Shown here piece by piece: positions 393-58,529 of a stretch of 64,000 nt of DNA. The position numbers and the translations under genes were made by a program. Positions within the stretch are counted from its first letter, which is position 1; every line of letters starts with the position of its first letter. The notes under the pieces are model-generated. The model was not told the origin of the DNA, searched no databases, and was given only the letters and a program-made list of their open reading frames with translations. The stretch comes from Squalus acanthias (Eukaryota), in assembly GCA_030390025.1 (NCBI GenBank), contig CM059431.1, forward strand, positions 123,816,001 through 123,880,000, written 5' to 3'.

Positions 393-2508
393 CATGTGTA
401 CCATCTAAGTTGAATTTGCACCTGCAATTCATTCATTTGTTCCTTATACTCTGTGCGTTTGTATAAAGAACACTTATTTTAGCCACACTCCCCAACCTGT
501 CCATCTGCTCTAATGTTGTTTTTCTCACACATTTCTTATTTCTCTCTCCTGATTTAATTACTTTACATCATCTAGTTTTCTCTTTACCGGTAGTGCCTAA
601 AGCACAATTTTTGACTATTACTCTACTCTCTTCCCTTTTGTTTGTTTTAGAATTATTATTTATGCTACCTTTTCCACCTGAGCTCACCCATCGCCCCATT
701 TACTGGTTTAAAGTCCTTGTGACCCCCCATTCATCCTTTCCGGTAGAACCTTGGTTGCAGCCCAGTTCATTATCCCCTTTCCTATACCTTTAGGTATATG
801 TAACAACTGAAGCTATATTCCAGATCAAACTCCTGCTGCTTTCAGTAATGCTACTTAGTAGGTTCAAATACCTAATTTATAAATGATCATTTCACCAATT
901 TAACTATGATCATGTCATACCTTGTACAAGGGTGAAACAGCTAAATCCAGTGACAATTAATTTTTTCAAGGCAGAAAGTTTTTGAAATCGTCAGAATCAA
1001 GACACAATTCTAATCTCTAATACAATCTATAATTAACTGAACTTGTGATCTAACAAAGTACAAAACCAACAGGTCATCAGCAATCTTGGCTACTGACATT
1101 CCTTACCCAATGCAAGCAGTATGGCCGTGATATTTTTCATCTATTTACCTGCAAACTTTGTGACAAACTTAAGCTCAAGATCCATTTGACAGAGATTCCA
1201 TTGTAGCCCTTTTCTCTCATTAGCAACCTACTTGGAGGGTGAAATTCTAAAGCTGTTTTCTTGCTGGAAAAATAAACCTTGCAGGGGAAAACTGCTGAAC
1301 CATTTTGTTTTGTAAAACAATACAAAATATTAGAATTTTAGCTAGATGATGCATGGTTTGCAACTGGTGTCTCCATGTGAAAAGATCAGTTATTTTTGAA
1401 CTCTTAATCCAGCTTTTAACGATTTGACGATTTTCCTCCCCTTCCACTGTTTAGTTCAACAATCAGGAATGGCAAGATACCCCTTCAAGTACTGTTTGTA
1501 TGGCATTCTCTGTATGCCTGTGCTCTGTTCTTGTGATTTTGAGTGAGGCCTCTTCAAAAGAACTCCAGGGCTTGAAATTGCTAGGCCTTCCTCCTCTACA
1601 GATTTGCTCTTTCCTATTATGTGCCACTTTCTGTTGTAGCAGTGTTGAGATGTGAAAGTTTGAAGTGTATATACAGAGACAGCCAAGTGTCTATTCTGAA
1701 TCCTAGTACATGTGTCAGTAGATGAACATGCACCACACAGTTGGGTTTTCTTGGAAGGCGGCTTTGTGGGCACGAATTTATGGATGTAAGCGCTATAACA
1801 GTGGAAGCATACCCTGCTGATAGAATAAGTTTGTCTGAAGGTTTTGCATGTGGCTGCAATCAAGGTGCAACTGGCTGAAGTCACCCACTTTGGCCCTGAA
1901 AATCTATAGCCCTTCCAGCACACACCATGAGTCAGGCAGGGGTTCAGTTCTAGACCAGGACTCAGATATGCCAGCTCCTGACCTCTATGCAGAGTTTCCC
2001 GTCTATCCCAAACATGATTTCCTACATCCGAGAGTACATGGCTATGTGAAAGGGACTCCCAGGCCTGGAATTTCATTGGGCTATGCCTGGTAGAAGAATA
2101 GTGGCAGGTATGCCAGGTGAAAGGAGACATACCAATCATTGGAGCTGTGCAAACAGGTTCCGCCTGGAGGGCCTGGCCTGGGTTTTGGGCTGGAGCCCTG
2201 AATAAAAACTCAGTAAATATTTATTCCATAATAAAGGGGTCACCAGGGTATCAGAGGACACATTTTGGAGGGTGGAGTAACACCCCCGGAAGTGATCATC
2301 CTTTGGCATATTTTACAATCTCCCTGGACTGGTGGGCACTTGAGATGCACTCATACCGATGTGGGCGCCTGCTATTCTACAGGGATCCTCTAGAGAGTCC
2401 AGTGGGGTTATCAATGGATGATCCCTGCAGGTGTATCCCAGCATAAGTACTGGGAAATTGGACCCACAAAAATTTGGGGCCTTTGTGGAATGCACGTTTT
2501 GCCCATAA

Positions 2509-13393: not shown

Positions 13394-14933
13394 TTAGATG
13401 CGAGAGCAGTAATGGAGATAAAACTCATGTAGACTTGGTTTGAATGGTACGAAATGGAAAATCTTTATTGCATGATACTTAAAATTATGAAATACATGTC
13501 ATAAGCACAGATTAATGACAGTACAATCTTACAAACAGTTATATAGTCGATCTTAGGGAAACGAGGAACGAACGGCACAAAGTAAATAGGGGCACACATT
13601 ACAAATATCCTTAATCCTTAAACCCTCCCCTATCAATATCTATCCTAAACTAGCTTCGTAGGATCTCGAGACTCATGCTCACCACTCGTGATAACTCGGA
13701 GAAATTCCGAATAGCTGATCGGATGTTTTTCACCGCAGCACCCACGTGTCGGTCAGGAGATCTCCTGGTCCCACTTGTTTACTTGCTTCTGCTGCTCCGG
13801 CTAGTAGGCTGGACCGTCTGCTGTGATGAAGACCTGTGTTGGTTGGCTTAACAGGTACTCTTGGAGCACAGTTGTCAATATCATCGATACGATGTGTTTT
13901 CACGTTCCAATCTCCTTAGACACAGTCCCGTTATCGTCGATGCAATATGTTTTGTTAAAAGTTCAAAATAGAAATCTTCCTGGCGAGGAAAACTTGGCTG
14001 ATCGACCTACAGGCGCGGTCGGGATTTACTGACCGTGGCGATGGATATGGTCTTCCTCTCTTCTCCTCTCATCTCATCTCATCTCATCTCATCTCGGGCC
14101 TTTGGTTCCGCTGCCAGTTACCAACATAGGTCTTCGTTACGCGACACGAGGTAGATCCGAACGGATCAGAAAGTTCAACAGTCTTTTCAGAAGAGGCAAC
14201 GGGCAAGCAGAAGCCCAACTACGAGTACACAGGAGCAGCCACGAGGTTACGAATCGACCGGATAAAACACAGGAGCAAGCGAGCGAATGCAAGAGCAAGA
14301 GAGAGAATGGACGGTTTGGAGCCTGCAATTATAGTGCAAAAATCTTCCGTTTCCCGCCCAACTATAATGTCCATTCTTTTGTTTAGGGTTTGGCGCCCAA
14401 ATGTCTTGTATGGGTGATCTCCGTTCTTAATGAGTTTCGGGGCTACTCATAAATGTCTGAGTGCCTGTTAATATTTCTCCCATTGTTAAATCGGTCGGTG
14501 TTCTCCCTGGAGGGGTTTGGGGCTTCCAAGTGTCCTGTATAACTACCTGCTAACGGCTCTCTCATCGTAGAGTCGTTGGGATTTACATATTAATGTCTTT
14601 TGGATGGGCCCTTGATTACTCGGTACAATGGCTTTCCTTTGTACCTGGGAGACCGATTCCAGTATCTATGTTTATACTGCAAACCCATAATGTCTCGTGT
14701 ACCATCTTCACTGTGCTGAATCGTTATCGATCTTGCACAAATGTTTAATGGAACGCCATCTTGTCTGCCTGTTGAAAAGTCTAGAATGTTCTGTCACGAG
14801 GTGCGGCGGCCATTTTACAGGCTGCTTGTGTCCAATTTAAACCTGCCAGCATTCTGCTGAAATAAAAGCTGTTTGAACGAAACTTTGTGTTTTCTCCTCA
14901 TTAATCAAATCGCGATATATTGCGAATTCTACA
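13394..14933 (-). repeat. 3' LTR, 1540 bp
   Basis: Second copy of the repeat. On the element strand it is preceded by the purine tract AGGAGGG plus AC. Confidence 0.97.
13464..13469 (-). terminator. Candidate poly(A) signal AATAAA in the 3' LTR
   Basis: The only element-sense AATAAA I found in the LTR, about 70 nt from its end. Confidence 0.6.
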
Positions 14934-15375: not shown

Positions 15376-17727
15376 TTACACGGTGCTCTCATCGTGCACG
15401 CGCACGTAACGTTCTCGCCACTCTCCCGTGTTTTCATGCTTGGTGAGGCGCTTGTCTCTTTTACAATGTATGACCAATAGGTACACTACAATAAACACTT
15501 GACATGCGACTAAAATGTGGGAGGCTATTCTGATCCATGAAGGCACTTCAATATTAGTGAACAGATTCCACCACGGTGGAACTACTATGTCCAGAATGTC
15601 TGTTCCTATTTCGACAGTTTTCTGCTCTAATGTATAAAAATGTTTCTGTGATACCGCGACGGCTTTCAGAAGTTTGGTTAAATGTTCAGGGAGAGGGGGA
15701 ATGAGGTATCCAAAATGCGCGACAAATCGCTGCAAGTCGGTGAAATTCTCTTTTACTGTGAGATGAACAGTGGATGGTTCAGGGATTGGGATAATTCGCT
15801 GTTGTGCTACTTGAACTTCAGCCCTGGGTTTAAAACAGAAACTGCTGCCACTCACCGGACACCGGCTACGGTTTCCATGCTGGTAGTGTTGCGCTGCAGT
15901 GGTAACACAATATGTTCCACCCCCGATGTATGCTACCTGCGGAGGCACATGATCTTGTGCCATTGCCTCCATGGTGCAATTCATGGACTTGGCGCCAGCC
16001 GTTCTGAACCCGCACTGTGGTGTTAAAAAGGCATTCAAGTGCTGGGGGCACAGTATTATGTGCGCTCCCCTGCCACGACAACCAGAGAGATCTGTACCTG
16101 TCATCGTTTGCTCCCAGCGGATGACGTAAGGTGGAACTGCTGCATAGCGAATGTGGGCTCCCCCCTGAATGACACCAATGTTCTCTACCCGATACACCGG
16201 GGCGGGCTTTGCTGTGTCGCCCAAAACCGGCATGCGTAATACTATTCCCATAATAGTATGGTTTGAACGTCCGCAGTCCACGGGGACTGGGTATGCTTCT
16301 GAAGCTAGCCTGAGCTGGCACGGGCTTAATGCGTTCTGAAAAGGGTGGAGCGCCCGTAGGTGTTTGTTACTTATCCAGGACGGAACCAAACCTTGTTTTA
16401 AATCCTCCAAATTACTGCGGCCCTCGCCCAGTAACCACGCCCCGTAAAGCACGCACACCTCGTTCTGCGCAGCTTGATCGGATGCATTCCGATCTTCCCT
16501 GATCAGGGCATTTACCGTACGCGCATGTTTCTCCAGCTCTGCTATAATTTCCTTTAAATGGAGAGTCATGGCTTGGTCCTCGTGTAGACCTGACCCTACC
16601 ACTTTATTCTCATCTGTTAGAATGTCTTTTAACTGTGTTTTTAAACCATTAATCTGGGTCTGCAGCTCCACACTGTCTAGAGCGTTGACCACAGATGTCC
16701 CTGTGTTAAAAGCAGTGAACGCATCGTTCACCAAACCCCTTCTTTGCCTCCCTACTTGATCCAAAACTTCCTGCGGTGCGGTGTACAAACTTGTCTTATC
16801 AATTTCTGCAAAATCAAACTCGTAAAATTGTCTGAACATCTTGGTCAACAGGACCTGATACAACTGTTCCGTCTTTTTGGGGCACCACTCTGGTAACCGT
16901 ACCTCAGTGAGATTTAAAATCACCGAGGCCACCGCGTAATGTACCCCCTGAAAGAGTATCTGGTCTGTGGGGACCAGTACCAAACCATTCCCGGGTCCCT
17001 TACTAGTTTTAGGGCACCCTTCTTCCTCAGCTAGAACCACCGGAATCGTGGGCGGGGCTTTGCGTGGGCGCGTAATGAGTTCAGTGGCATTTACTGGGAT
17101 CGGGGAGAATGGGGCTCCGCACCCCCTGGTGCTCGCATCCCACCTCATCCCCTGTCCGTTATCCTGCCATTGATTAATAAAAAATATGGAGATGCCTTTG
17201 GGGCAAACGTACTTTGACCCCCACATACATACATAAATCCCCTCATCCGGTTCCCACCATTTGTCCCAACAGACTTTCACTTGTCCGTCTGTCCCCGTAA
17301 TTGTCCGATGGGTATTATTACCCAGTCGTTCCCACTCGACCGAAGAGTTTCTCATAGTTTTGCTCAGCTTTCGCAGCCACCACCATCGGCTCAATGGGAC
17401 CTTCCCACTACAAGTCAAACAAATCCGTTTGCCGACGGTGACGCTGATCCTGGGTGCGATGATCCTTACTTTGGGGCACAGTAAAGAAGTCTCTTGGTAG
17501 GCAAACCCCGATGTGCTGGAATACTCCGTTGAGTTCGTTCCCAGCCATCCTGGCCACCTTCCCTTGTGGAAATAGGTGCTGGTCCCCTCTGCCTTCCGTC
17601 TTCCGGTCCCATCCACCGCGATGGGGGCCGTGTCCCCGGAACATCCAAACACCACGACATCCTTGGTGCGGCCTCGATAGGCCAATCCACATCCGATTGC
17701 CACGAGCAATACTAGAATTCGTTCCAT
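15376..17727 (-). CDS. env: Envelope glycoprotein, about 783 aa (the ORF is open upstream to 17886)
   Basis: Signal-peptide-like MERILVLLVAIGCGLA, furin site RQRR (16738-16749), fusion-peptide-like GLVNDAFTAFNTG, heptad region, Cys-rich ectodomain, TM helix ILVACQVFIVVYLLVI and a short tail. The start codon is inferred. Confidence 0.9.
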   Translation of the reverse strand: MERILVLLVAIGCGLAYRGRTKDVVVFGCSGDTAPIAVDGTGRRKAEGTSTYFHKGRWPGWLGTNSTEYSSTSGFAYQETSLLCPKVRIIAPRISVTVGKRICLTCSGKVPLSRWWWLRKLSKTMRNSSVEWERLGNNTHRTITGTDGQVKVCWDKWWEPDEGIYVCMWGSKYVCPKGISIFFINQWQDNGQGMRWDASTRGCGAPFSPIPVNATELITRPRKAPPTIPVVLAEEEGCPKTSKGPGNGLVLVPTDQILFQGVHYAVASVILNLTEVRLPEWCPKKTEQLYQVLLTKMFRQFYEFDFAEIDKTSLYTAPQEVLDQVGRQRRGLVNDAFTAFNTGTSVVNALDSVELQTQINGLKTQLKDILTDENKVVGSGLHEDQAMTLHLKEIIAELEKHARTVNALIREDRNASDQAAQNEVCVLYGAWLLGEGRSNLEDLKQGLVPSWISNKHLRALHPFQNALSPCQLRLASEAYPVPVDCGRSNHTIMGIVLRMPVLGDTAKPAPVYRVENIGVIQGGAHIRYAAVPPYVIRWEQTMTGTDLSGCRGRGAHIILCPQHLNAFLTPQCGFRTAGAKSMNCTMEAMAQDHVPPQVAYIGGGTYCVTTAAQHYQHGNRSRCPVSGSSFCFKPRAEVQVAQQRIIPIPEPSTVHLTVKENFTDLQRFVAHFGYLIPPLPEHLTKLLKAVAVSQKHFYTLEQKTVEIGTDILDIVVPPWWNLFTNIEVPSWIRIASHILVACQVFIVVYLLVIHCKRDKRLTKHENTGEWRERYVRVHDESTV

Positions 17728-17740
17728 CCTTCCTTGGTTC

Positions 17741-17765
17741 CTGTGATCAGATAGAATGAGGTAGC
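17741..17765 (-). promoter_or_regulatory. Candidate env splice acceptor
   Basis: CTACCTCATTCTATCTGATCACAG|G, 13 nt upstream of the signal-peptide ATG. Confidence 0.55.
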
Positions 17766-18039
17766 CCGCCTCGCAAGAGTCTCTGGCTTTTGTGAAGGGT
17801 GAGCGGGTCCCCTGACCTCGCCTCACGTAAACTTCAACGTTTGCTGAATAAACTTCCTCTAAACCTAACCTTAAAACTCCCATCATTTATCGTTTTCTGT
17901 TAAAAACACTACAAACTTAGCCTTATTAAAATTACAACCTTAACCTTGAACTATAAACTTAAAACTTAACCTTGTTACTTATAAACTTAAAACTTAGAAC
18001 TATAACTTTACAGTGCCGCCCGTTCTCAGGGCGGCCCCT

Positions 18040-21000
18040 TTAAACTCTGAGAAGGCTGCTGCGAGCTCTTCCCGACGGTGGGAGGGCACTGACCCTTCCC
18101 TCTGATCTGCCGCAGCCTGTTGCTGCGCTGACCCTTCCCTCTGATCTGCCGCAGCCTGTTACTGCTGCGATGTGGCCGGTCTGTACCCGGGTTATCTTAA
18201 CCTGAAGTCTACGCCTTGGGGCAGTCTGGGGACATGACCACATCCTCCTGGGCTGGGGTTCTCTGCTTGACCTACGGGGAGTTGCTATGGGCGGGGGTTC
18301 CGTGACGGACGAACCGGGTTCCGAGACCTCCAACGGGATGACCTGGGGTTCCACCACAGTCGCTGGCTCCGCCTCCGCTGACTCCGCCTCCCTAACCTCG
18401 GGGCTGGCAGTTCGTGGCTCCGCCCTGCTCGGCCCAGCAAGCGGCCCTTCACTCGTGATCTCTGCCTCCCCTGAGGACTGGACGTTCAAAGCGGGCGGCC
18501 ACATCTCTGGGAGCCACATCGGTACTCTCTGTGCTCCTATAGCGGCTGGCCCTGCCTCCTCTAGCTCCTCCCTCCTGTCCTCGGGACCTGCAGCTTGTGT
18601 GTCCACCCTGTGTGGATCTCTACCTATAGGCCCCATTCCCTCCAGACCGTTCCTCAGGAACCACCCGTCATCATCACTATGCTCATCTGCACTATCCTCA
18701 TCTGACCAGGGTACCCTGGGTTCTTCCTCATCTAACCCCCAACTCCAGAAAAACGCTGCATGATCGTCCGGGATGTCCCTTCCCCTGATGCAAGCTGCTA
18801 TGCCTGCCTGTGTGCCTTGTGGTCCTACCTGGGGCTGTGCTTTCCCATTGGCGGGATTTACCCCTGTAGTTTTCCCCTGCGCACCCGGCTGGTACAGTTT
18901 GCATTGGTTTATGTGGAACCACTTAGTGCGCCGAGGTACTTTTACGGCGTAAACCATGGGACTCGCCTTGTCTACAATGTTGTAGGGTCCCATATACAGT
19001 GGTTCCAGACTCCCTACTCTGGCGTAGTTTCTGACCATGACCTGGTCTCCTACTTCCCACTCCCGCGTTTTGCGGGGTTCCAGCAACAAGCGATTGCCCT
19101 GATGCTGCCTTCCCATGTTCCCAGCCGCCTGCTCATAAACTTGCTTCAGGCGCTCCAAGAGAGTCTGGGCGAACTTGTCCCTGCTTATCTCTTGGAGCTG
19201 ACCCTCAGTGAGCACCGGGGCTAGCACATGGGTGGGGGTTCGCATGAGCCTCCCAGTCATTACCTCGTGCGGGGAGTACCCCGTACTTTTTGACTGACTG
19301 GCCCGGACCCCCATGAGGACTAAAGGCAGAACTTCCGCCCATTTTTGGGGCGAGTTCCTAGTCTCTTTCCTCAATTTCTCCTTCAGGGTCCGGTTCATAC
19401 GTTCAACAATCCCGGATGACTGGGGATTGTGTGCTACGTGCCACTTCCCTTCAATGCCCAAAAGCATGAGGGTGTTCTGCATCACCTGGCCGGTGAAATG
19501 ACTCCCTTGGTCTGACTCCACAAAACGGGGGAGTCCCCACCGCGAGAACACTTCCCGGACCAAGATTTTTGCTGTACCCAGTGCTGTAGCTGTTCGACAA
19601 GGGAAGGCTTCCACCCACTTGGAAAACACATCCACCAGGACGAGGCAGTACTTATAACCTCCCTGGGTGGTGGGCAGGGGTCCTATATAGTCGATCTGTA
19701 TCGACTGCCATGGTCCCTCTACCCTTCTTACGTGTCCCATGGGCACCTTCCTTTTCTGGGGGTCTGGGTTGTTTGCGGCGCACACAAGACAGTTTGCACA
19801 GAACTCGCGGACTTGTTCCCTGAGCCCTGGCCACCATCCCGCTTGCTCTACCCGTTGCCAGGTAACCTCGGGCCCGGGGTGCCCTGCCCCTGGTCCCTCG
19901 TGAGCCAACTGGAGGAATTCCCTCCTGTGCTGCTGCGGCACAACCCACTGCTCCTCGCGGAACAGCATGCCTTCCTTAACTGAGAGGGTTGCCGTACTGT
20001 ACGGACCTTCTACCTGCCTCCCCTCAGCAATCGTTTTTAGGACTGCTTTTAGGGCGGGATCCTGGGCTTGGACGGTCTTGAGGTCTAGGGGCAATGCTAC
20101 CCTGGTGTTCCCGGTATTCCCGTCCCCGCCTCGGACCGCTGCTATGGGTCCGGTCCTGTAGGGGTTCCAGAAAGTGCCGTCGCGGGCACCCTCCCTGGCT
20201 AGCGCATCCGCCTGCCGGTTGCCCTCCCCACGGGGCTCTGTGGAGGAGTGAGCTTTCACCTTATGGATGAAAATCTCTCCTTCCTCCCCTACTGCTGCTG
20301 CTAAGATCTTTTCCAGCAAGGGCTTCACCGTTAAAGGTCGCCCGTCCGCGGAGGTGTATCCGCGGCGGGACCAAATGGCCAGGTATTCCGTACACGAATT
20401 GCAGGTGAACATACTGTCCGAGCAAATCGTGTATGGGGTTGGGAAAATGTCTGGGTGGGTCACAACGTACACCACGGCAGACAGCTCAGCCTGCTGCGCG
20501 CTCATGGTGCTAGGGAGCTTGATCGCCAGGGCAAGGTCTGCCGCAGGGTCATAAACTCCACACCCTGTGAGTCGCTCGCCAGCAGACACTGTGCTAGACC
20601 CATCAACATAAATCTCGCGCCCAGTGGGATGTATCCCGGCCCGTAAACCTATGTTGACGTCCCACACCCCTTCCACCGAACACCGGTGGGCTGTACCGGG
20701 GTATACCAAATTGGCCGCAAGCCTGGGCTCGCAAAGACCCTTTACTCTAAGATCCAACTGGGAGAGAAGAAGGGTCCAACGCGCAATGCGTGCGCTGCTT
20801 ACGGTCCCGTCTTTAATCCTCCCATCCAGAAGCATCTTAGTTGGTGTGTGATGTGTGAGGAGAGTGATGGGAGAGAGCCCTGTGAAGATCGCTGATCTTT
20901 TCACAGCCCAATGCGTGGCTAAAAGGTGCCTTTCGCAATTGGAGAAACTTCTCTCCACATCCGTTAATACCCTGGATGAATAGACAACCGGCCTCAGCTT

Positions 21001-22563
21001 GCCGTGACGCTCTTGGAGCAGCACGGCGCTTAAGCTGTCTCCGCTGGCAGCTACCTCCAGGAAAAACTCCTTCCCCCCATCTATGGCCCCTAAGGCTGGC
21101 GCGGTCTGCAGATCCCTTTTTAACTTCTCGAAGGCTGCTTGGCAGCCCTCGTCCCAAAGCCACTCCACCCCCTTATGGAGGAGTCGGAGGAGCGGCGCCG
21201 CTGTGGCCGCATAATCTTCGATAAAATCCCTGCAGTAACCGGTCAGTCCCAAGAAGGACCTCACACCCCTTACGTTGTTGGGAATCGGTAATTCTTGCAC
21301 CGACTCCCTCCTTGCTTTGTCTATGGCTCTTTCCCCAGCGCGTATGGTCAGTCCCAGGAATTTTACTTCCCGCTGACCGATACGTGCTTTCTTAGGATTT
21401 ATTTTAAAACCCTTTCTCGCTAACAGTTCCAATAACTCGTCCAGTAGTGGTCCGTGCTCCTCCCTTGAGTCCGTAAATAGGAGCAAATCATCCACATACT
21501 GTACTATCTGATTGGGCTGACTAAACTCCCTTAAACTTCCTGCCATACACTGATGAAAAATACTGGGGCTATTGTGGAAACCCTGTGGCAGACAGTTCCA
21601 CGTGTACTGTTGCCCTTTGAAAGTAAAGGCAAACTTGTACTGGTCCTCTCGCCGCAGCGGGATGGACCAAAAACCGTTCGAGATATCCAGCACCGTGAAC
21701 GTGGTCGCGGACGCTGGGATGCTCCCTATTAGGTCAGCAACTGCTGCTACTGTGGGCGCGCAGGCGGGAATGTTACTGTTAAGGACTCTGTAGTCCACCG
21801 TGGCTCTCCACGAATTATCCGGCTTCCTAACCGGCCATAATGGGGAGTTCACGTGTGTGGCTATCGGCCTTAACACGCCCTGCTGCACCAAGGAAGACAT
21901 TGCTGTCTCCATATCGGGTTCTGCTTCTTTGGGGAAGTTATACTGCTTTTGGGGTCGGGTCATGGGGTCCCCATCTACGCTGACCTCAAACCCGACCACT
22001 CTCCCACAATCGTGCTTGTGGGTTGCAAACGCGTGCATATTATCTGACACGTACGTTTGCATGTCCGTTGGGACATCTGCGACCATAAGCCTGAGGTCGT
22101 AGCCTCCGGATGGCTGTACGGTACACAGGACCCCTGTTTCTTCCTCCCCCGGAATCACTATTACCTCGCCCTTTTCACCTTTAGCCCCCCAGAGACAGTG
22201 ATTTCTGAGGTCCACGAGGATCCCGTGTCCCGCTAGGAGATCGGACCCGAGAATACCTCTTCCACCCCCCTTTTGCCATGCCATCAGTATACACTTCCAC
22301 TTAAGGCGAAGTGTTCCTAAACGAATGGATAGCGGAAGGGAAAACGTGCCAGCCTGTTCTTTTCTTGTGAACCCTGCCAACGTGAATGGGACCTTGGTAG
22401 ATAGCGGCGAGTCAAAAGGGTTATCTGTATGGATTATGGTGCAAGAAGCTCCCGTGTCCAACAAATAACTGCCCTTCTGTTTCTCTACCTCCATCTCCAC
22501 CACAGGTCGCCTCCACGCATCATAGCTAAGCGGACACAGGTAGACGGGCTGTGCTGGTTCTAG
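18040..22563 (-). CDS. pol: Pol (protease, RT, inactive RNase H tether, RNase H, integrase, long C-terminal extension); in frame with gag after one TGA
   Basis: Protease LLDTGA and ILGSD. RT LPQGFHNSP and YVDD (21487-21498). RNase H YVDGSS/AELSA/SDS/GNRQAD. Integrase HHCC, IDYIGP, SDQGSHF, IVERMN and GPY. The frame is open from the gag stop to 18040. Confidence 0.95.
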   Translation of the reverse strand, partial: LEPAQPVYLCPLSYDAWRRPVVEMEVEKQKGSYLLDTGASCTIIHTDNPFDSPLSTKVPFTLAGFTRKEQAGTFSLPLSIRLGTLRLKWKCILMAWQKGGGRGILGSDLLAGHGILVDLRNHCLWGAKGEKGEVIVIPGEEETGVLCTVQPSGGYDLRLMVADVPTDMQTYVSDNMHAFATHKHDCGRVVGFEVSVDGDPMTRPQKQYNFPKEAEPDMETAMSSLVQQGVLRPIATHVNSPLWPVRKPDNSWRATVDYRVLNSNIPACAPTVAAVADLIGSIPASATTFTVLDISNGFWSIPLRREDQYKFAFTFKGQQYTWNCLPQGFHNSPSIFHQCMAGSLREFSQPNQIVQYVDDLLLFTDSREEHGPLLDELLELLARKGFKINPKKARIGQREVKFLGLTIRAGERAIDKARRESVQELPIPNNVRGVRSFLGLTGYCRDFIEDYAATAAPLLRLLHKGVEWLWDEGCQAAFEKLKRDLQTAPALGAIDGGKEFFLEVAASGDSLSAVLLQERHGKLRPVVYSSRVLTDVERSFSNCERHLLATHWAVKRSAIFTGLSPITLLTHHTPTKMLLDGRIKDGTVSSARIARWTLLLSQLDLRVKGLCEPRLAANLVYPGTAHRCSVEGVWDVNIGLRAGIHPTGREIYVDGSSTVSAGERLTGCGVYDPAADLALAIKLPSTMSAQQAELSAVVYVVTHPDIFPTPYTICSDSMFTCNSCTEYLAIWSRRGYTSADGRPLTVKPLLEKILAAAVGEEGEIFIHKVKAHSSTEPRGEGNRQADALAREGARDGTFWNPYRTGPIAAVRGGDGNTGNTRVALPLDLKTVQAQDPALKAVLKTIAEGRQVEGPYSTATLSVKEGMLFREEQWVVPQQHRREFLQLAHEGPGAGHPGPEVTWQRVEQAGWWPGLREQVREFCANCLVCAANNPDPQKRKVPMGHVRRVEGPWQSIQIDYIGPLPTTQGGYKYCLVLVDVFSKWVEAFPCRTATALGTAKILVREVFSRWGLPRFVESDQGSHFTGQVMQNTLMLLGIEGKWHVAHNPQSSGIVERMNRTLKEKLRKETRNSPQKWAEVLPLVLMGVRASQSKSTGYSPHEVMTGRLMRTPTHVLAPVLTEGQLQEISRDKFAQTLLERLKQVYEQAAGNMGRQHQGNRLLLEPRKTREWEVGDQVMVRNYARVGSLEPLYMGPYNIVDKASPMVYAVKVPRRTKWFHINQCKLYQPGAQGKTTGVNPANGKAQPQVGPQGTQAGIAACIRGRDIPDDHAAFFWSWGLDEEEPRVPWSDEDSADEHSDDDGWFLRNGLEGMGPIGRDPHRVDTQAAGPEDRREELEEAGPAAIGAQRVPMWLPEMWPPALNVQSSGEAEITSEGPLAGPSRAEPRTASPEVREAESAEAEPATVVEPQVIPLEVSEPGSSVTEPPPIATPRRSSREPQPRRMWSCPQTAPRRRLQVKITRVQTGHIAAVTGCGRSEGRVSAATGCGRSEGRVSALPPSGRARSSLLRV

Positions 22564-24375
22564 TCATGGGGCACTATTAGACGGTCCTGCGGCACCTACG
22601 GGGCCGGTTGCGACCGCCACCTGTCCACGCGCATTCAAAACCAGCTTGCGCATGGCTCCTAACACTGCTTCGAGGTCGTCGGGAGGGGTGGGTGCCTTGG
22701 CTTCCTTAGCCGGGACAGGCGCCTGGGCTCGGACCGCGGGATTTTTATCCTTGGAATCCTTCCAAGGGTTCCTGCAATGCTTGCGCCAGTGCCCTGTCTT
22801 CCCACACCCGTAACAAGCATTACTTGCCTGTGGGGCGCGATTACCCTCCTGATGCCACTCTCTTTGATACGGGGCTGCGGGTCGTACCTCATGTACTCTT
22901 CCCTTAAAGGGACGTGTCGTCATACCCCTTATATTACGATAACCTAACGTGAGTCGATTCAAGACCGACTCTTCCGTAAGGTTGAGGTCATTGGGATCAA
23001 ACCATGCTTTTGCCTGCTCTCTAACGGCTGGTAAACTGTTGGCTATTATGCACCTAAGCCAATGAGTTAAAGCGGCGCCTTCCACATCTTCGCGCTCGGG
23101 CGCACCTAGACAGCTGCGCTCATATACTGGCCACAGCCTGTCGGCAAAAACCTTCGGGGGTTCTCCCTCCATCTGCACTGTCTGTCCCACTCTAGCAAAC
23201 GGACCTCCGTCGTTCGCCCCCAACACTTCTAGGACCTCATTCTTTAATTCCTCATAACTCTTGTTTCCCCTCTTGCTCTCGCCTGAGAGACACTGAAGGA
23301 CCGAGCTGTCTAATGAGAACAGCAGCATTTTTGCTGTCTCCCCATCATCGCAGCCGTTAATGGCTGCGGCTTGCTCAACTTCTCTGAAATGTACGGAAGG
23401 GTCGTCTATCTCGGTCAGCTTCCGTACGTGATTTATCATAGCTCTCAGCTGATGTGAACTGTGAGGCAACACCAGCTGTCCGAGGAGATCCCCCGGTTCT
23501 TCCCCACCGTTTCTGCTTGGGCCCCTTTTAATACCCGTTACTGGATACAGCGATCCCTTTTCTACTTCCTTTTCAATGGGCTCTTTTGTTTCTTCCATTG
23601 CTTCCTCCCTAACCCAGGTTTCTGAATAGCTGGGTGGCGCGGAGGGCGCAGTGGCTACTACTTCTTCTGCTTTACTTGGTGGGGATTTTCTAAATCTCTC
23701 ATTTACTAGCGGCTGGTGCGCCGACGGATTGATAAGGCACACCATGCCGTTCGCATTGTTCACGGCCTTTTTGAGGTTCTCTATCTCCCTTTGGCAGGCG
23801 CTATGGTCGGCTCCCTGAAACTTATCCTCAAGGGCCAACTTATATGCCGACCTAACCCCCATTAAGCTCTCTTCTTGAGTTCTTATCTGGGCAGCTTGGC
23901 GGTTACATCTTTCCTTTAACCTGCTCTCATTCAATTTTGCCTCAGTGACCTGGCACTCGAGATAATCTATCCTTGTTTTAAGGTGACTGGAGACTTCCTG
24001 GCTTTCCTGGTGTAACTCATTTAAATTCTTAATGAGCACCTCCCCTCCAGAAACCTTCTCCTCCATTTCTCCCTCTAAATGACTGATTCGAGCTACTAGC
24101 GCTGTAATGGTCTGGTTTGAAATCTGAACCTGCCTTTTGTAGCACATAAGCCAGACTGCTTTCTCAAGTGTCTTTCTATGTTCTTTACTATCTGTCCACC
24201 TTTCAGCTGCCTCTAGTGGGCTCTTATCCGCTAACAATTCACTTATCCATTTCTTAGTTAGATTAACCTTTCCAAACACATAATCCGCTATCTTTTCCTG
24301 CATAACATTTCGTACAGTCATTCCAAAATCTAACACACTACCCTCTCGCTGCCAGTGTCCTGCCGCGGTCGCCAT
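22564..24375 (-). CDS. gag: Gag polyprotein, 603 aa from the first ATG
   Basis: ATG in good Kozak context (AAAATGG). N-terminal coiled-coil-like region, PSAPPSY late motif (23626-23646), and one CCHC knuckle CYGCGKTGHWRKHC (22774-22815). Confidence 0.93.
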   Translation of the reverse strand: MATAAGHWQREGSVLDFGMTVRNVMQEKIADYVFGKVNLTKKWISELLADKSPLEAAERWTDSKEHRKTLEKAVWLMCYKRQVQISNQTITALVARISHLEGEMEEKVSGGEVLIKNLNELHQESQEVSSHLKTRIDYLECQVTEAKLNESRLKERCNRQAAQIRTQEESLMGVRSAYKLALEDKFQGADHSACQREIENLKKAVNNANGMVCLINPSAHQPLVNERFRKSPPSKAEEVVATAPSAPPSYSETWVREEAMEETKEPIEKEVEKGSLYPVTGIKRGPSRNGGEEPGDLLGQLVLPHSSHQLRAMINHVRKLTEIDDPSVHFREVEQAAAINGCDDGETAKMLLFSLDSSVLQCLSGESKRGNKSYEELKNEVLEVLGANDGGPFARVGQTVQMEGEPPKVFADRLWPVYERSCLGAPEREDVEGAALTHWLRCIIANSLPAVREQAKAWFDPNDLNLTEESVLNRLTLGYRNIRGMTTRPFKGRVHEVRPAAPYQREWHQEGNRAPQASNACYGCGKTGHWRKHCRNPWKDSKDKNPAVRAQAPVPAKEAKAPTPPDDLEAVLGAMRKLVLNARGQVAVATGPVGAAGPSNSAP

Positions 24376-24560: not shown

Positions 24561-26100
24561 TTAGATGCGAGAGCAGTAATGGAGATAAAACTCATGTAGA
24601 CTTGGTTTGAATGGTACGAAATGGAAAATCTTTATTGCATGATACTTAAAATTATGAAATACATGTCATAAGCACAGATTAATGACAGTACAATCTTACA
24701 AACAGTTATATAGTCGATCTTAGGGAAACGAGGAACGAACGGCACAAAGTAAATAGGGGCACACATTACAAATATCCTTAATCCTTAAACCCTCCCCTAT
24801 CAATATCTATCCTAAACTAGCTTCGTAGGATCTCGAGACTCATGCTCACCACTCGTGATAACTCGGAGAAATTCCGAATAGCTGATCGGATGTTTTTCAC
24901 CGCAGCACCCACGTGTCGGTCAGGAGATCTCCTGGTCCCACTTGTTTACTTGCTTCTGCTGCTCCGGCTAGTAGGCTGGACCGTCTGCTGTGATGAAGAC
25001 CTGTGTTGGTTGGCTTAACAGGTACTCTTGGAGCACAGTTGTCAATATCATCGATACGATGTGTTTTCACGTTCCAATCTCCTTAGACACAGTCCCGTTA
25101 TCGTCGATGCAATATGTTTTGTTAAAAGTTCAAAATAGAAATCTTCCTGGCGAGGAAAACTTGGCTGATCGACCTACAGGCGCGGTCGGGATTTACTGAC
25201 CGTGGCGATGGATATGGTCTTCCTCTCTTCTCCTCTCATCTCATCTCATCTCATCTCATCTCGGGCCTTTGGTTCCGCTGCCAGTTACCAACATAGGTCT
25301 TCGTTACGCGACACGAGGTAGATCCGAACGGATCAGAAAGTTCAACAGTCTTTTCAGAAGAGGCAACGGGCAAGCAGAAGCCCAACTACGAGTACACAGG
25401 AGCAGCCACGAGGTTACGAATCGACCGGATAAAACACAGGAGCAAGCGAGCGAATGCAAGAGCAAGAGAGAGAATGGACGGTTTGGAGCCTGCAATTATA
25501 GTGCAAAAATCTTCCGTTTCCCGCCCAACTATAATGTCCATTCTTTTGTTTAGGGTTTGGCGCCCAAATGTCTTGTATGGGTGATCTCCGTTCTTAATGG
25601 GTTTCGGGGCTACTCATAAATGTCTGAGTGCCTGTTAATATTTCTCCCATTGTTAAATCGGTCGGTGTTCTCCCTGGAGGGGTTTGGGGCTTCCAAGTGT
25701 CCTGTATAACTACCTGCTAACGGCTCTCTCATCGTAGAGTCGTTGGGATTTACATATTAATGTCTTTTGGATGGGCCCTTGATTACTCGGTACAATGGCT
25801 TTCCTTTGTACCTGGGAGACCGATTCCAGTATCTATGTTTATACTGCAAACCCATAATGTCTCGTGTACCATCTTCACTGTGCTGAATCGTTATCGATCT
25901 TGCACAAATGTTTAATGGAACGCCATCTTGTCTGCCTGTTGAAAAGTCTAGAATGTTCTGTCACGAGGTGCGGCGGCCATTTTACAGGCTGCTTGTGTCC
26001 AATTTAAACCTGCCAGCATTCTGCTGAAATAAAAGCTGTTTGAACGAAACTTTGTGTTTTCTCCTCATTAATCAAATCGCGATATATTGTGAATTCTACA
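24561..26100 (-). repeat. 5' LTR, 1540 bp, element-sense TGTAGA...TCTAA
   Basis: Matches 13394-14933. By-eye comparison found two substitutions (14433/25600 and 14923/26090) and no indels. Confidence 0.97.
25475..25563 (-). promoter_or_regulatory. Candidate LTR core promoter
   Basis: TTTGGCGC and TTTCCCGC (E2F consensus), a GC box, CGGAAG, TATAAT at 25500-25495, and an Inr-like CCATTCTCTC about 25 nt downstream. Confidence 0.5.
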
Positions 26101-55731: not shown

Positions 55732-58529
55732 GGCCGTGATTTTCTTCCTGGAGGCGGGTTTTCATCGGGAACGGTAGTGGACGGGTTCCTGTCCCGCTGC
55801 TGGCGCCTGCCGGCCTGCTGACACAATTTTTCATTGATTGGCCTAGTTAAGCCCGCCGTGTGGGTTACCCACCCTCATCACAAGGTGCGGGTCTGTTCAG
55901 CTGAGATGCTGACGCATTTGTAGCCGGTGCATTTAAGGGGGCCATTTCCCCATTACATATGTGGTAGTTTCTGGTGCTTCTGACTGCTGCTTCTCACCAC
56001 GATGTCTGCAGAGAAACAAAAGACAGCTCATCGCTTCAACGAGGACTCCCTCCATGTTCTTGTGGAGGGAGTCAGAGGATGTCGGGATGTCCTGTACCCA
56101 TCTGATGGAAGAAGGAAACCTCCTCAGCAGACAAAGGCAGCCTGGCTGCGAATAGCTGAGGAGGTCAATGCCAGGTCTATGTATAGACGCACCTGGGTCC
56201 AATGCAGGAAAAGGTTCAATGATCTCCTGTGTTCTGGAAAAGTGAGTATAAAAGCTCACTTACCTTAATTCTGCTGTGCCTGTCATCACATCCCCATCAC
56301 TCTGCATTGCTAACCCTACTCCTGCACATCCTGACTCAACCTAACATCCCTTGCACCAATCCCTCTCTCCCTATGCGCAGATTCACTTCCCCATCTTACT
56401 ATGCACCCCTCACACCCACCCTCAAGGTTATGCACTGACAACTAACAACTCAAAAGGAGGGAACTTCATTATGGGAACCCACTCCTTCACAGTCTCCCTC
56501 TAAACATCTATCCTGTCCATTCTTTACACTCATTCCATCACTCTCACTGAAACTCCACGTCATTCCCTCATTGCAGGAAAAGAGAGCCCACAATAACAGG
56601 GAGAGGGAGAGAATGGGAGGACCACCATCCTTATCACAGCTGATCAACGCTGAGGAAGATGCTCTGGAAATTGTGGGATATGGGGAAAAGCTCGAAGTGG
56701 GGGACGGAGAGACGGGCTCAGTTGAACAACCTGGTGACAGAATGCTTCTCCATCCATCTTATTTGGCTTTCATGAGTGACACATATGGCATCTGATGTCA
56801 TTAGAAATTGAATGCTCATCATGTGCACAATGGGATGTGTCTGCAGTCTAAATATCACATGTCTAACTCATGTCTTTACTCCCCCACAGGACCATCAAGA
56901 GCCCCCCTCCCTACTGCCCAGGAGGAAGAGCCGGAGGACTCCTCAGAGGATGCTGCATCCTCTGAGGGAGCAGCGTCAGCAGCAATCAACGCATCCAGCA
57001 CAGCGCAGTCACGCGCACCTCGGTGGGTCGTTCACGAGATAGAGTAATGTTGTCACCTGGTGTATCACAACGCATGAGTGAGCAAGAGCAGATGGTGGAG
57101 ACAGGGACAGCAGTGGAGAGACCTCGTCGGAGGCCGCAGGACACTCCTAGCTCTACTCAGCTGCATGTAGACGCTGAGCCTCGGGGGCCATCCAGAAAGA
57201 AAGCGGTACTGGAGTTTCAAGACCAAGTGCAGGAGGCTCTGACTGGGTTTGCAACCATGGTGACTGCGAGTGTGCAGAGAATGGAGGAGTCCATCTCAAA
57301 CATGAGCAATGCTGTGGTGCATGCAATGGTGAATGTAGGTACCGCCATGGAAAGGATGGCAACCTCCATGGAGGACATAAATCGCCAGACTCAAATGAAC
57401 ATGGTGACTCTTCTAAATAGATGGTCAGCTATGGAGGATAGATGGGCATCTATCATGGAGAGGAACCAGAGGTACATGGACATCCCCGTTATGAGGACTG
57501 TCAGTACAGAGATGGGTCCTCATGGCCCCACTGATGTGCAGCAAGGTGCTCTGCAGCTACTTGCGATCAGAGAAGTGTGGGTGGCCCATGAGAGGGATGA
57601 TGGTGGGAGGCGACATGCAAGTGGGGGATCCTCTCCAAGTGCTCCACCTTCCATCCCCTTGCCAAGCCCTCGATCAGAGCTCCAGATGACTGCCGAGCAG
57701 TGACGGTCGAGTCTGCCCCTGTGCAGCCGCAGGAGGAACAGCCTTTGGCGGGGCCTTCAAAGGCTCCAAAACCCAGAGAACAACAGCCAAAGGTATCAAA
57801 GCAGGTGCAGCACAGAAGTGAGCAGGCTGTCTCTACATCTACTGAAGCCACAGGGGTAGCACAATGTAGAAGCACGCGTAAGAGAAAGCTGATATATAAA
57901 TGATCACAAGGGTACTCACTTGGGTGTTCTGATAGAATTCAATGTTAAGTTTCTGTTCTTTATTATGTTGGAATAAATTAATCTTGTATGAATGTTTGAC
58001 ATCATTGAAAAGTGTGTGATCCCAATTTAAGGTGGCACAATGAAGGGTGAGAGCACCTTTATGTCCAGCAATGAAGGTGACAGTAGATATAGAGTTAACA
58101 ACAGACACTTACAACCTCAAGACAGTCTCCCAAATTGTGAAATCAGCAATCTCTGACATCTGAAGTTAAGCAGATTTGAGAGTGCAGCTTTTAGACTGCA
58201 GTTGCAGCTGTAAAGTTTCCAGCTCGTTGGTCTTCCCGCCACACTTACCTGGCATGATCTCCGAACATCGTGAAACCCGAATAAAATGTTGGAAAGTTGC
58301 AAAAGGCTCTCAAAATAGCAGTTAACAAGCACTTAACAAGGAGTTAAGTGCCTTAAATCCCTTACCCACCACTTGGTGCCGGGTCTGTTGTGAAATCACA
58401 GACGCGACACTCTTGAGACTCACACGGAGGCGGGTTTGCGGCGGTTTTCCGACCCACCGTCAATCATTGCAACTTTAACAACTGAGCCGCGTCCGAACCC
58501 GCCCTCTGAGCGCTGGCAAAATCGTGGCC
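55732..58529 (+). mobile_element. Harbinger element retaining the Myb/SANT gene but lacking transposase
   Basis: TIR GGCCRYGATTTT and TSD AAT. Confidence 0.85.
56002..57903 (+). pseudogene. Three-exon Harbinger Myb/SANT-like DNA-binding gene with two apparent frameshifts
   Basis: Exons 56002-56241, 56577-56733 and 56890 onward join in frame through GT/AG sites; AWLRIAEEVN..RTWVQCRKRFNDL motif; frame breaks near 57000 and 57700. Confidence 0.75.

Follow-up and report, generated by a model that had tools for sequence, protein, structure and literature searches.

A Squalus acanthias endogenous retrovirus whose envelope protein joins a paramyxovirus F-like fusion core to a probable N-terminal immunoglobulin-like module

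A window of 64,000 nucleotides from the genome of Squalus acanthias (contig CM059431.1 of assembly GCA_030390025.1; by the window we mean this whole stretch) contains a 12.7-kb provirus on its minus strand, and the subject of this report is the envelope protein (Env) encoded by the env open reading frame (ORF) of that provirus. As modeled, the core of this Env folds as a class I fusion protein like the F proteins of paramyxoviruses and pneumoviruses, and there is no classical retroviral pair of surface (SU) and transmembrane (TM) subunits. Within the N-terminal extension that precedes the core, residues 139–235 quite likely adopt an immunoglobulin (Ig)-like fold. The account we favor, with moderate confidence, is that this F-like core is fronted by an N-terminal Ig-like module that would act as a receptor-binding head. 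Env proteins of this general kind are already known from lokiretroviruses and foamy viruses; what appears to be new here is the probable Ig-like N-terminal head.

F-like Envs form a link between retroviruses and negative-strand RNA viruses, and the question at stake is how an Env of this kind locates its receptor when no partner protein serves for attachment. A canonical-looking Ig domain ahead of an F-like core would answer that question in a compact and testable way. The Env of lokiretroviruses has been described as related to F from paramyxo- and pneumoviruses rather than to classical retroviral Env (PMC7947760), and that of foamy viruses as an F-fold core plus an added receptor-binding domain (RBD) (PMC11468914). 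In the searchable literature, which does not extend to supplements and subscription journals, we found neither an Ig-like N-terminal head on an F-type Env nor an F-type Env of this kind in a cartilaginous fish. Indeed, the word immunoglobulin is absent from PMC9040795, and both immunoglobulin and Ig-like are absent from an errantivirus preprint and from a 2026 review. (Note that a 2026 preprint on a syncytin-like Env in chondrichthyans concerns, to judge from its abstract, a different kind of Env.)

The fusion core

The full-length AlphaFold2 (AF2) model of Env covers residues 54–836 (residue 1 of the model is residue 54 of the ORF) and was built from an alignment of 49 rows; its mean predicted local distance difference test (pLDDT) score was 63.9, with values of 80–94 across most of the core. 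A Foldseek comparison with the PDB returned at least 218 matches at E ≤ 0.001, the best of which was the F protein of human parainfluenza virus 3 (1ztm; E 1.3e-10), and only paramyxo- or pneumovirus F proteins were found among the matches listed. Consistent with these findings, VIA-align, which is independent of Foldseek, aligned the model with the F proteins of Newcastle disease virus (3maw; Z 10.6), measles virus (9coh; Z 9.1) and Ghana virus (Z 9.1), as well as with foamy virus Env (Z 8.5; root-mean-square deviation (rmsd) 5.6 over 279 residues). The alignments to F begin at model residues 238–245, that is, at residues 291–298, where a CP..GP..GL motif is found that is kept in six of six full-length homologues. 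Because the F and the foamy virus alignments start at this point, the extra module lies N-terminal to the whole core. Further downstream, RQRR (residues 380–383) is followed by GLVNDAFTAFNTG, a furin-type site and hydrophobic fusion peptide at which cleavage is predicted from the sequence; R-x-K/R-R-like sites align among the homologues, and domains I and II of the F1-like ectodomain contain six invariant Cys. As modeled, the core as a whole includes domains I–III together with the heptad-repeat A and B helices.

None of the 49 family members matched the Pfam family PF00523 (Fusion_gly) at E ≤ 0.1, and the window Env did not match it at E ≤ 1, so that the link to F is one of fold, outside the Pfam family. 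One relative, P0041, matched Baculo_F (E 0.0011), and a search of the PDB with the whole Env as a single sequence gave four matches, all with E ≥ 1.5 and none of them relevant. The original prediction, which had been made from the window sequence by itself, assigned the Ig-like region to the surface part of a retroviral Env. The location in the surface part holds, but the Env in question is a paramyxovirus F-like fusion protein by both Foldseek and VIA-align, and not a classical SU/TM protein.

The sole CXXC motif in Env is CLTC (residues 156–159; 17410–17421), which overlaps the presumed B strand of the Ig-like region. We considered a gamma-type Env in which CLTC would serve as the CXXC isomerase site, and rejected it because the CX6CC motif is absent from the Env protein and the core is F-like.

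The N-terminal extension and its Ig-like region

The extension (residues 71–290, ~220 residues) is made up, in order, of a conserved segment, the Ig-like part and a Cys-containing, Pro-rich linker. A V/I-set Ig domain had originally been predicted at positions 17190–17470 of the window, which correspond to residues 139–233, on the strength of a B-strand Cys, a Trp run, a DEGIYVC motif and the spacing among them, and all of these were confirmed at the places given. In particular, ISVTVGKRICLTC occupies residues 147–159 (17410–17448), WWWLR residues 168–172 (17371–17385) and DEGIYVC residues 214–220 (17227–17247), with W168–W170 lying 9–11 residues past C159 and with C159 and C220 lying 61 residues apart. 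This spacing agrees with that of V/I-set domains, in which ~55–75 residues separate the B-strand and F-strand Cys and a Trp follows the first Cys at 10–15 residues. The predicted placement between a signal peptide and a Pro-rich linker held as well: a signal-like stretch (residues 54–70) is found upstream, and a stretch with 7 Pro in 33 residues (258–290) precedes the fusion core. The linker as a whole (residues 236–290) has pLDDT values below 50 in the full-length model.

When the Env protein was shuffled 20,000 times, just 2 shuffles yielded the pattern C-x(8-16)-W-x(30-60)-D-x-G-x-Y-x-C, and the Cys-Trp-DxGxYxC pattern occurs just once in the six-frame translation of the window (127,996 residues), at the Ig-like site. 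Relatives that span these positions (45–73% identity) preserve C156, C159, the Trp run, C206 and C220, with the exception of P0028, which has Phe in place of C159. We regard residues 139–235 as a probable single β-sandwich of the V/I type, with the canonical B–F Cys pair (C159–C220) and the C-strand Trp. C156 and C206 are conserved too, and might pair with each other, linking the B and E strands by a second disulfide.

Sequence profiles point in the same direction. No Pfam family but Ig_3 matched the window Env by position (E 0.52, 11.3 bits; residues 141–220 on profile positions 5–74 of 78), and none but Ig_3 recurred among its relatives, where it matched five of seven trimmed relatives with a best E of 6.9e-4 and with E 0.0085 for P0011. 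When a profile of the seven trimmed relatives was searched against the PDB, five matches were obtained at E ≤ 10: the first two were the V domain of CRTAM (E 0.012 and 0.021), the third was a nanobody (E 0.34) and the last two were unrelated. The alignment with CRTAM spans the whole domain, with the Cys, the Trp and DEGxYxC in register. (Note that trimming matters here, the untrimmed alignment being dominated by the zinc fingers of a chimeric gene model, P0004.) In a language-model feature search with residues 130–262, nine of the ten best family-bearing matches were Ig families, with scores of 0.86–0.89.

In the full-length model the strands of this part of the protein fall at residues 134–149, 155–160, 169–174, 185–187, 194–199, 202–207, 214–224 and 233–237, with pLDDT values of 47–70, and the strands of residues 71–138 may pack onto the Ig-like sandwich. 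VIA-align placed model residues ~25–205 on Ig-type domains in 33 of the 50 rows listed (Z 5.3–6.5, rmsd 2.6–3.9, 76–92 residues), and by title these are nearly all Ig domains of antibodies, T-cell receptors, CD8, TREM-1, pIgR or titin/obscurin. Among them are chicken CD8aa, with 89 of 112 residues aligned at Z 6.5 and rmsd 3.2, and TREM-1, with 76 residues aligned on model residues 90–169 at Z 5.4 and rmsd 2.6. On the model, the alignments with Ig domains begin at residues 25–34, which correspond to residues 78–87 of the ORF. The best reading of these several weak but concordant tests is an Ig-like domain of the V/I type.

A phmmer search of 1.84 billion representatives yielded 51 proteins at E ≤ 0.001, of which the distant full-length homologues match only from residue ~274–290 onward. 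Eight of the 51 span the N-terminal extension, and all eight are Env-like, with the Env-specific segment upstream of the Ig-like stretch. The closest named proteins come from the skate Rhinoraja longicauda (73–75%), a sawshark, the whale shark and other sharks. Word-based homologue searches returned only Env-like proteins (2 of 967, 3 of 131 and 4 of 8000 candidates), and because they added few sequences the alignments stayed shallow. The comparison shows that the fusion core is conserved among the homologues, whereas the N-terminal module is variable, often Ig-like, or absent. The bamboo shark protein P0014, named Ig-like domain-containing protein in UniRef, has antibody heavy-chain variable domains as six of its nine PDB matches (E 0.05–0.85), and for the frog protein P0021 all 50 of the PDB matches listed are antibody heavy chains (best E 0.0049), with Ig-type feature matches at 0.84–0.86. 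P0035 matches the Pfam V-set family (E 0.045), the shark proteins P0013 and P0024 have Cys-rich N-termini without Ig evidence, and in P0038 (584 residues) a signal peptide leads directly into the CP..GP..G[LI] start of the core, with no N-terminal head. The survey of related Envs that the original prediction had called for is divided, with Ig-like N-termini in shark P0014 and frog P0021 set against a second frog protein, P0049, with no Ig match, and P0038 with no module. The N-terminal extension is most likely a swappable head, predicted to bind the receptor.

In other elasmobranch genomes, the predicted genes P0004, P0009, P0041 and P0017 join pieces of the Env family to host-like parts, namely C2H2 zinc fingers (ZFP2-like), a Niban-1-like part, an F-box and a threefold repeat. 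These fusions are either annotation chimeras across endogenous retrovirus (ERV) insertions or exapted fragments.

Several results weigh against an Ig-like head. Every Pfam Ig match falls far under the 30-bit gathering score, so that we call the region Ig-like by fold and motif and not as a member of a Pfam family. The PDB profile matches reach just E ~0.01, and feature-search scores below 0.9 count as leads only. A VIA-align Z below 8 may stem from a common arrangement, values of 5.4–6.5 lie within the range open to models that lack a true match, and the PDB from which the Ig-type matches were drawn is rich in antibodies. A domain-only AF2 model (residues 71–300, 10-row alignment) had a mean pLDDT of 45 and was unusable either way; none of its 500 Foldseek matches reached E ≤ 0.001, the best being 0.12. 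Among the relatives, neither P0049 nor P0035 has an Ig match in the PDB, and hhalign comparisons of the Ig-like region with the N-termini of P0013, P0014, P0021, P0024, P0035 and P0049, and with a four-sequence alignment, gave only 0.1–1.8%, which leaves shared ancestry of the heads unsupported. Of the checks attached to the original prediction, Pfam supplied a match in the right position but under the gathering score, the full-length model gave Ig-type alignments, and Foldseek with the domain-only model gave no match at E ≤ 0.001. Of the V/I-set assignment itself, what stands is the agreement of weak tests on an Ig-like domain, with no conventional threshold reached.

The same uncertainties feed the alternative that residues 139–235 are no Ig domain at all, being another β-rich fold or part of a larger fold together with residues 71–138, with a pattern that is convergent or fortuitous. 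The C and F strands are indistinct in the poor domain-only model, there is no match above a curated threshold, and the Ig structural alignments start at residue ~78–87 rather than at residue 139 and take in ~77–92 residues of a 145-residue span. However, Ig families and no others are indicated by Pfam, by the PDB profile, by the language-model features and by structural alignment with the full-length model, and the Cys/Trp/DxGxYxC pattern is both rare by chance and built of conserved residues; we hold this alternative to be unlikely. If the Ig-like fold is accepted, its source can be questioned, and the original prediction had favored a captured host domain. On that account an exon-sized piece of a host Ig-superfamily gene recombined into env recently and serves in receptor binding or immune mimicry. 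The V/I-set signature is unusually well preserved for a viral domain, the top PDB profile match is the adhesion-type V domain of a host protein, CRTAM, and there is a precedent in the capture of an Ig-superfamily gene, nectin3, by the endogenous retrovirus CrocERV31 (PMC4299795). Yet no host protein, Ig-superfamily or otherwise, is found among the 51 phmmer matches, the word-based searches were equally silent on a host donor, and the match to CRTAM is one of low identity. Moreover, sequences from skate, sawshark and whale shark already have the module, at 45–73% identity. Being thus common to elasmobranch lineages, and with no host donor found, the module lends no support to recent capture, which we judge distinctly improbable; an ancient host origin, or a donor that has since diverged, is possible.

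The receptor-binding role that we propose for the Ig-like module is plausible. The provirus has one env gene, and its ORFs include no second glycoprotein gene; given that paramyxoviruses carry a separate attachment protein, the Ig-like module would be the likeliest binding head. Attachment would then be built into Env itself, with the head tethered by the Pro-rich linker, and the metastable F-like core would be released once the head engages a ligand on the cell surface, as has been proposed for the foamy virus RBD (PMC11468914). One could suppose instead that the region is Ig-like but binds no receptor, and is a prefusion cap, an antibody shield, a decoy or a mimic of an adhesion molecule, with attachment located elsewhere or, if copies spread within cells, unneeded. 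P0038 keeps the whole core without the module, so the core can exist alone, and two N-glycosylation sequons (N180 and N190) lie within the Ig-like domain. Some F proteins, those of pneumoviruses, attach unaided, which also speaks for a non-binding module. On the other hand, where a fusion core is conserved and the head varies, the head is usually the part that binds the receptor, as described for foamy virus Env and for the RBD of gammaretroviruses, and the intact env of all scored genomic copies, with variants that are mostly synonymous, fits Env-dependent spread. We see only a slight chance that the module is no receptor binder.

The provirus and its copies

The element is a very young multi-copy endogenous retrovirus with a lokiretrovirus-like build (LTR-gag-TGA-pol-env-LTR, where LTR is long terminal repeat) in a cartilaginous fish. 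Its features are given in Table 1.

Table 1 Positions of the provirus and its parts in the window (residues of Env are numbered from the first ATG of the ORF)
Feature	Position	Strand	Basis
3' LTR, 1540 bp	13394..14933	-	blastn of the two flanks
env ORF, 836 residues from first ATG; stop codon within the coordinates	15376..17886	-	ORF reading
Transmembrane helix (~residues 783–808) and short cytoplasmic tail	15379..15540	-	hydropathy maximum at residues 785–809; helix at model residues 730–766
F1-like ectodomain, residues 384–782: fusion peptide GLVNDAFTAF..., long heptad-repeat A (HRA) helices, β-rich domains I and II, heptad-repeat B (HRB) helix	15541..16737	-	
F2-like part of the core, residues 291–383: CP..GP..GL start, RQRR end (16738–16749)	16738..17016	-	
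Linker, residues 236–290: two Cys (C256 and one at the end, at the core start), Pro-rich residues 258–290	17017..17181	-	
Ig-like (V/I-type) domain, likely, residues 139–235: C159, W168–170, DEGIYVC (C220)	17182..17472	-	motifs; profile and model tests
Conserved N-terminal segment, residues 71–138 (RWPGWLGxNST.YSS)	17473..17676	-	invariant and near-invariant alignment columns
Start M54 and signal peptide, residues 54–70, probable	17677..17727	-	hydrophobic stretch; relatives start or align here; variant pattern
pol ORF, 1484 residues from first ATG: protease, reverse transcriptase, tether (RT_RNaseH_2), RNase H, integrase, long C-terminal extension	18040..22494	-	
gag ORF, 603 residues, stop TGA, in the same frame as pol	22564..24375	-	ORF reading
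5' LTR	24561..26100	-	blastn of the two flanks

When the flanks of the element were compared with each other by blastn, the two 1540-bp LTRs proved to be 99.87% identical, with 2 mismatches. Neither a target-site duplication nor a primer-binding site was recognized at the outer LTR ends as delimited by blastn (13394 and 26100), and the left boundary is possibly wrong by a few bases. For gag, a Pfam scan gave a weak zf-CCHC match alone (E 0.3). For pol, Pfam identified RVT_1 (E 3.3e-36), RT_RNaseH_2 (2e-21), RNase_H (2e-19), Integrase_H2C2 (1.7e-17) and rve (5.4e-15). In a search of PDB sequences, pol matched Ty3 (2.6e-72), reverse transcriptase (RT) of the murine leukemia virus (MLV) type (8.8e-70) and foamy virus protease-RT (2.4e-63) roughly equally, with human immunodeficiency virus RT at ~1e-15; residues 182–770 of pol aligned to MLV RT-RNase H, and the integrase was closest to that of prototype foamy virus (1.5e-33). 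These scores fit a deep lineage without placing the element.

One in-frame TGA (22564–22566, minus strand) lies between gag and pol, with the protease motif DTGA soon after it, and this single stop suggests that gag-pol would be expressed by stop-codon read-through. The last ~280 residues of pol (18040–18900, minus strand) run far past the SH3-like part of the integrase and are acidic and Pro/Ser-rich; they have no Pfam match, and they end in a tandem 13-residue repeat (..GCGRSEGRVSA.. twice). Beyond the provirus, the window holds just two ORFs of at least 200 residues: that at 1456–2139 (minus strand) matches no Pfam family at E ≤ 0.01, and the sole Pfam match at E ≤ 0.01 of that at 57047–57703 (plus strand) is a weak one to Baculo_PEP_C (E 0.0081).

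We compared env with its own 3.7-Gb genome. A first look gave 13,978 candidates, a figure that is no copy number, and all 54 of the 54 scored matches span 836 of 836 residues at 99–100% identity and are free of stops. A full-length env free of stops is found at 54 or more places; contig C792 has a pair of copies 7.8 kb apart and contig C6 a pair 11.7 kb apart. The env family is very young and strongly amplified. Among 29 other genomic copies compared with the window copy, env has 37 nonsynonymous and 86 synonymous variant codons, a ratio of nonsynonymous to synonymous polymorphism (pN/pS) of 0.13. By part, pN/pS is 0.19 for the Ig-like part (4 nonsynonymous to 6 synonymous) and 0.05 for the F-like parts (2:12 in the F2-like and 8:48 in the F1-like part); these ratios are biased downward by the choice of copies with the top protein scores and come from small counts, which weakens them as evidence for the proposed head. 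Residues 1–53 have 9 nonsynonymous and 2 synonymous variants (pN/pS 1.38), as against 28 and 84 downstream. This excess of nonsynonymous variants suggests that M54 is where translation of Env starts, and residues 1–53, the stretch upstream of M54 (17728–17886, minus strand), probably lie outside the translated protein. The open frame is 846–859 residues long in other copies, as against 836 here.

The intact env in all 54 scored copies, the near-identical LTRs and the mostly synonymous variation together raise the possibility that the family traces a very recent spread by infection. The element extends lokiretrovirus-like elements to the cartilaginous fish, and its family is so young that the proteins could be studied in the form found.

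Comparison with known systems

The element resembles the lokiretroviruses (PMC7947760) in the order LTR-gag-pol-env and in a dual RNase H (tether plus RNase H), both of which are found here, and their Env is likewise described as having a signal peptide, a furin-type site, a fusion peptide, a coiled coil, a transmembrane segment and a relationship to F. It differs in that the accessible text of the same report gives five host classes, with cartilaginous fish not among them, and makes no mention of an Ig-like N-terminal domain, the terms immunoglobulin and Ig-like being absent from that text. The likeness is one of gene order, RNase H pair and Env fold. If it holds, the lineage extends to a vertebrate class in which it is unreported.

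Ig-type structure in a retroviral or retrovirus-borne protein has counterparts elsewhere. Contrary to the original prediction, which knew of no retroviral Env with such a domain, the MLV RBD has been called an L-shaped Ig-like fold, and the gammaretroviral RBD of Friend MLV (1AOL) shares with our Env an N-terminal Ig-like sandwich head (probable in our Env), a Pro-rich region and a class I fusion protein (bioRxiv 10.1101/2023.10.07.561363). Gammaretroviruses differ in their gamma-type TM subunit with a CX6CC motif, which is missing from the Env described here. To our knowledge, the MLV RBD has no canonical V/I-set sequence signature, and 1AOL is not among the 50 VIA-align rows listed. The V domains of CRTAM and nectin-like proteins (4h5s, 3rbg) give the best profile match, end to end and with the motifs in register, but E reaches just 0.012–0.021, identity is low and there is no evidence of direct descent. 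CrocERV31 offers an Ig-superfamily ectodomain at the env position of an ERV, for which cell binding was proposed by its authors; there, as reported, env was replaced by the entire mRNA of a host gene, with three Ig domains and ~76% identity to that gene (PMC4299795). Our Env, unlike CrocERV31, is an intact fusion protein to which one probable Ig-like domain is joined, and no host parent of that domain was detected.

The closest parallels in architecture are provided by the F proteins found in paramyxoviruses and pneumoviruses and by foamy virus Env. With the former (1ztm, 3maw, 3rki) our Env has in common the core fold, a fusion peptide that comes right after a furin site, the HRA and HRB helices and, close to HRB, a domain II that is Ig-like; an Ig-superfamily fold is described for this domain in F-type proteins (PMC11468914). 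Those viruses, however, have attachment on a separate protein and a short F2, whereas here there is the 220-residue N-terminal extension. With foamy virus Env (8rm0, 8rm1) it shares a retroviral F-fold core with an added surface-subunit module, but the foamy virus RBD is reported to be a previously unseen fold, inserted in domain III between heptad repeat C and the furin site (PMC11468914). In our Env, by contrast, the extra module precedes the whole core, with ~90 residues from the core start to the furin site, and the leader-peptide architecture of foamy viruses is not seen. We offer as tentative the broader proposal that F-type retroviral Envs of cartilaginous fishes and amphibians attach through exchangeable N-terminal Ig-like heads, and that the element may be the trace of a very recent infectious lokiretrovirus-like virus. 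If true, fusion core and binding head would evolve as separate modules in this Env lineage, and the arrangement would count as a third architecture for attachment, next to the separate protein that serves paramyxoviruses and the RBD that foamy viruses carry as an internal insert.

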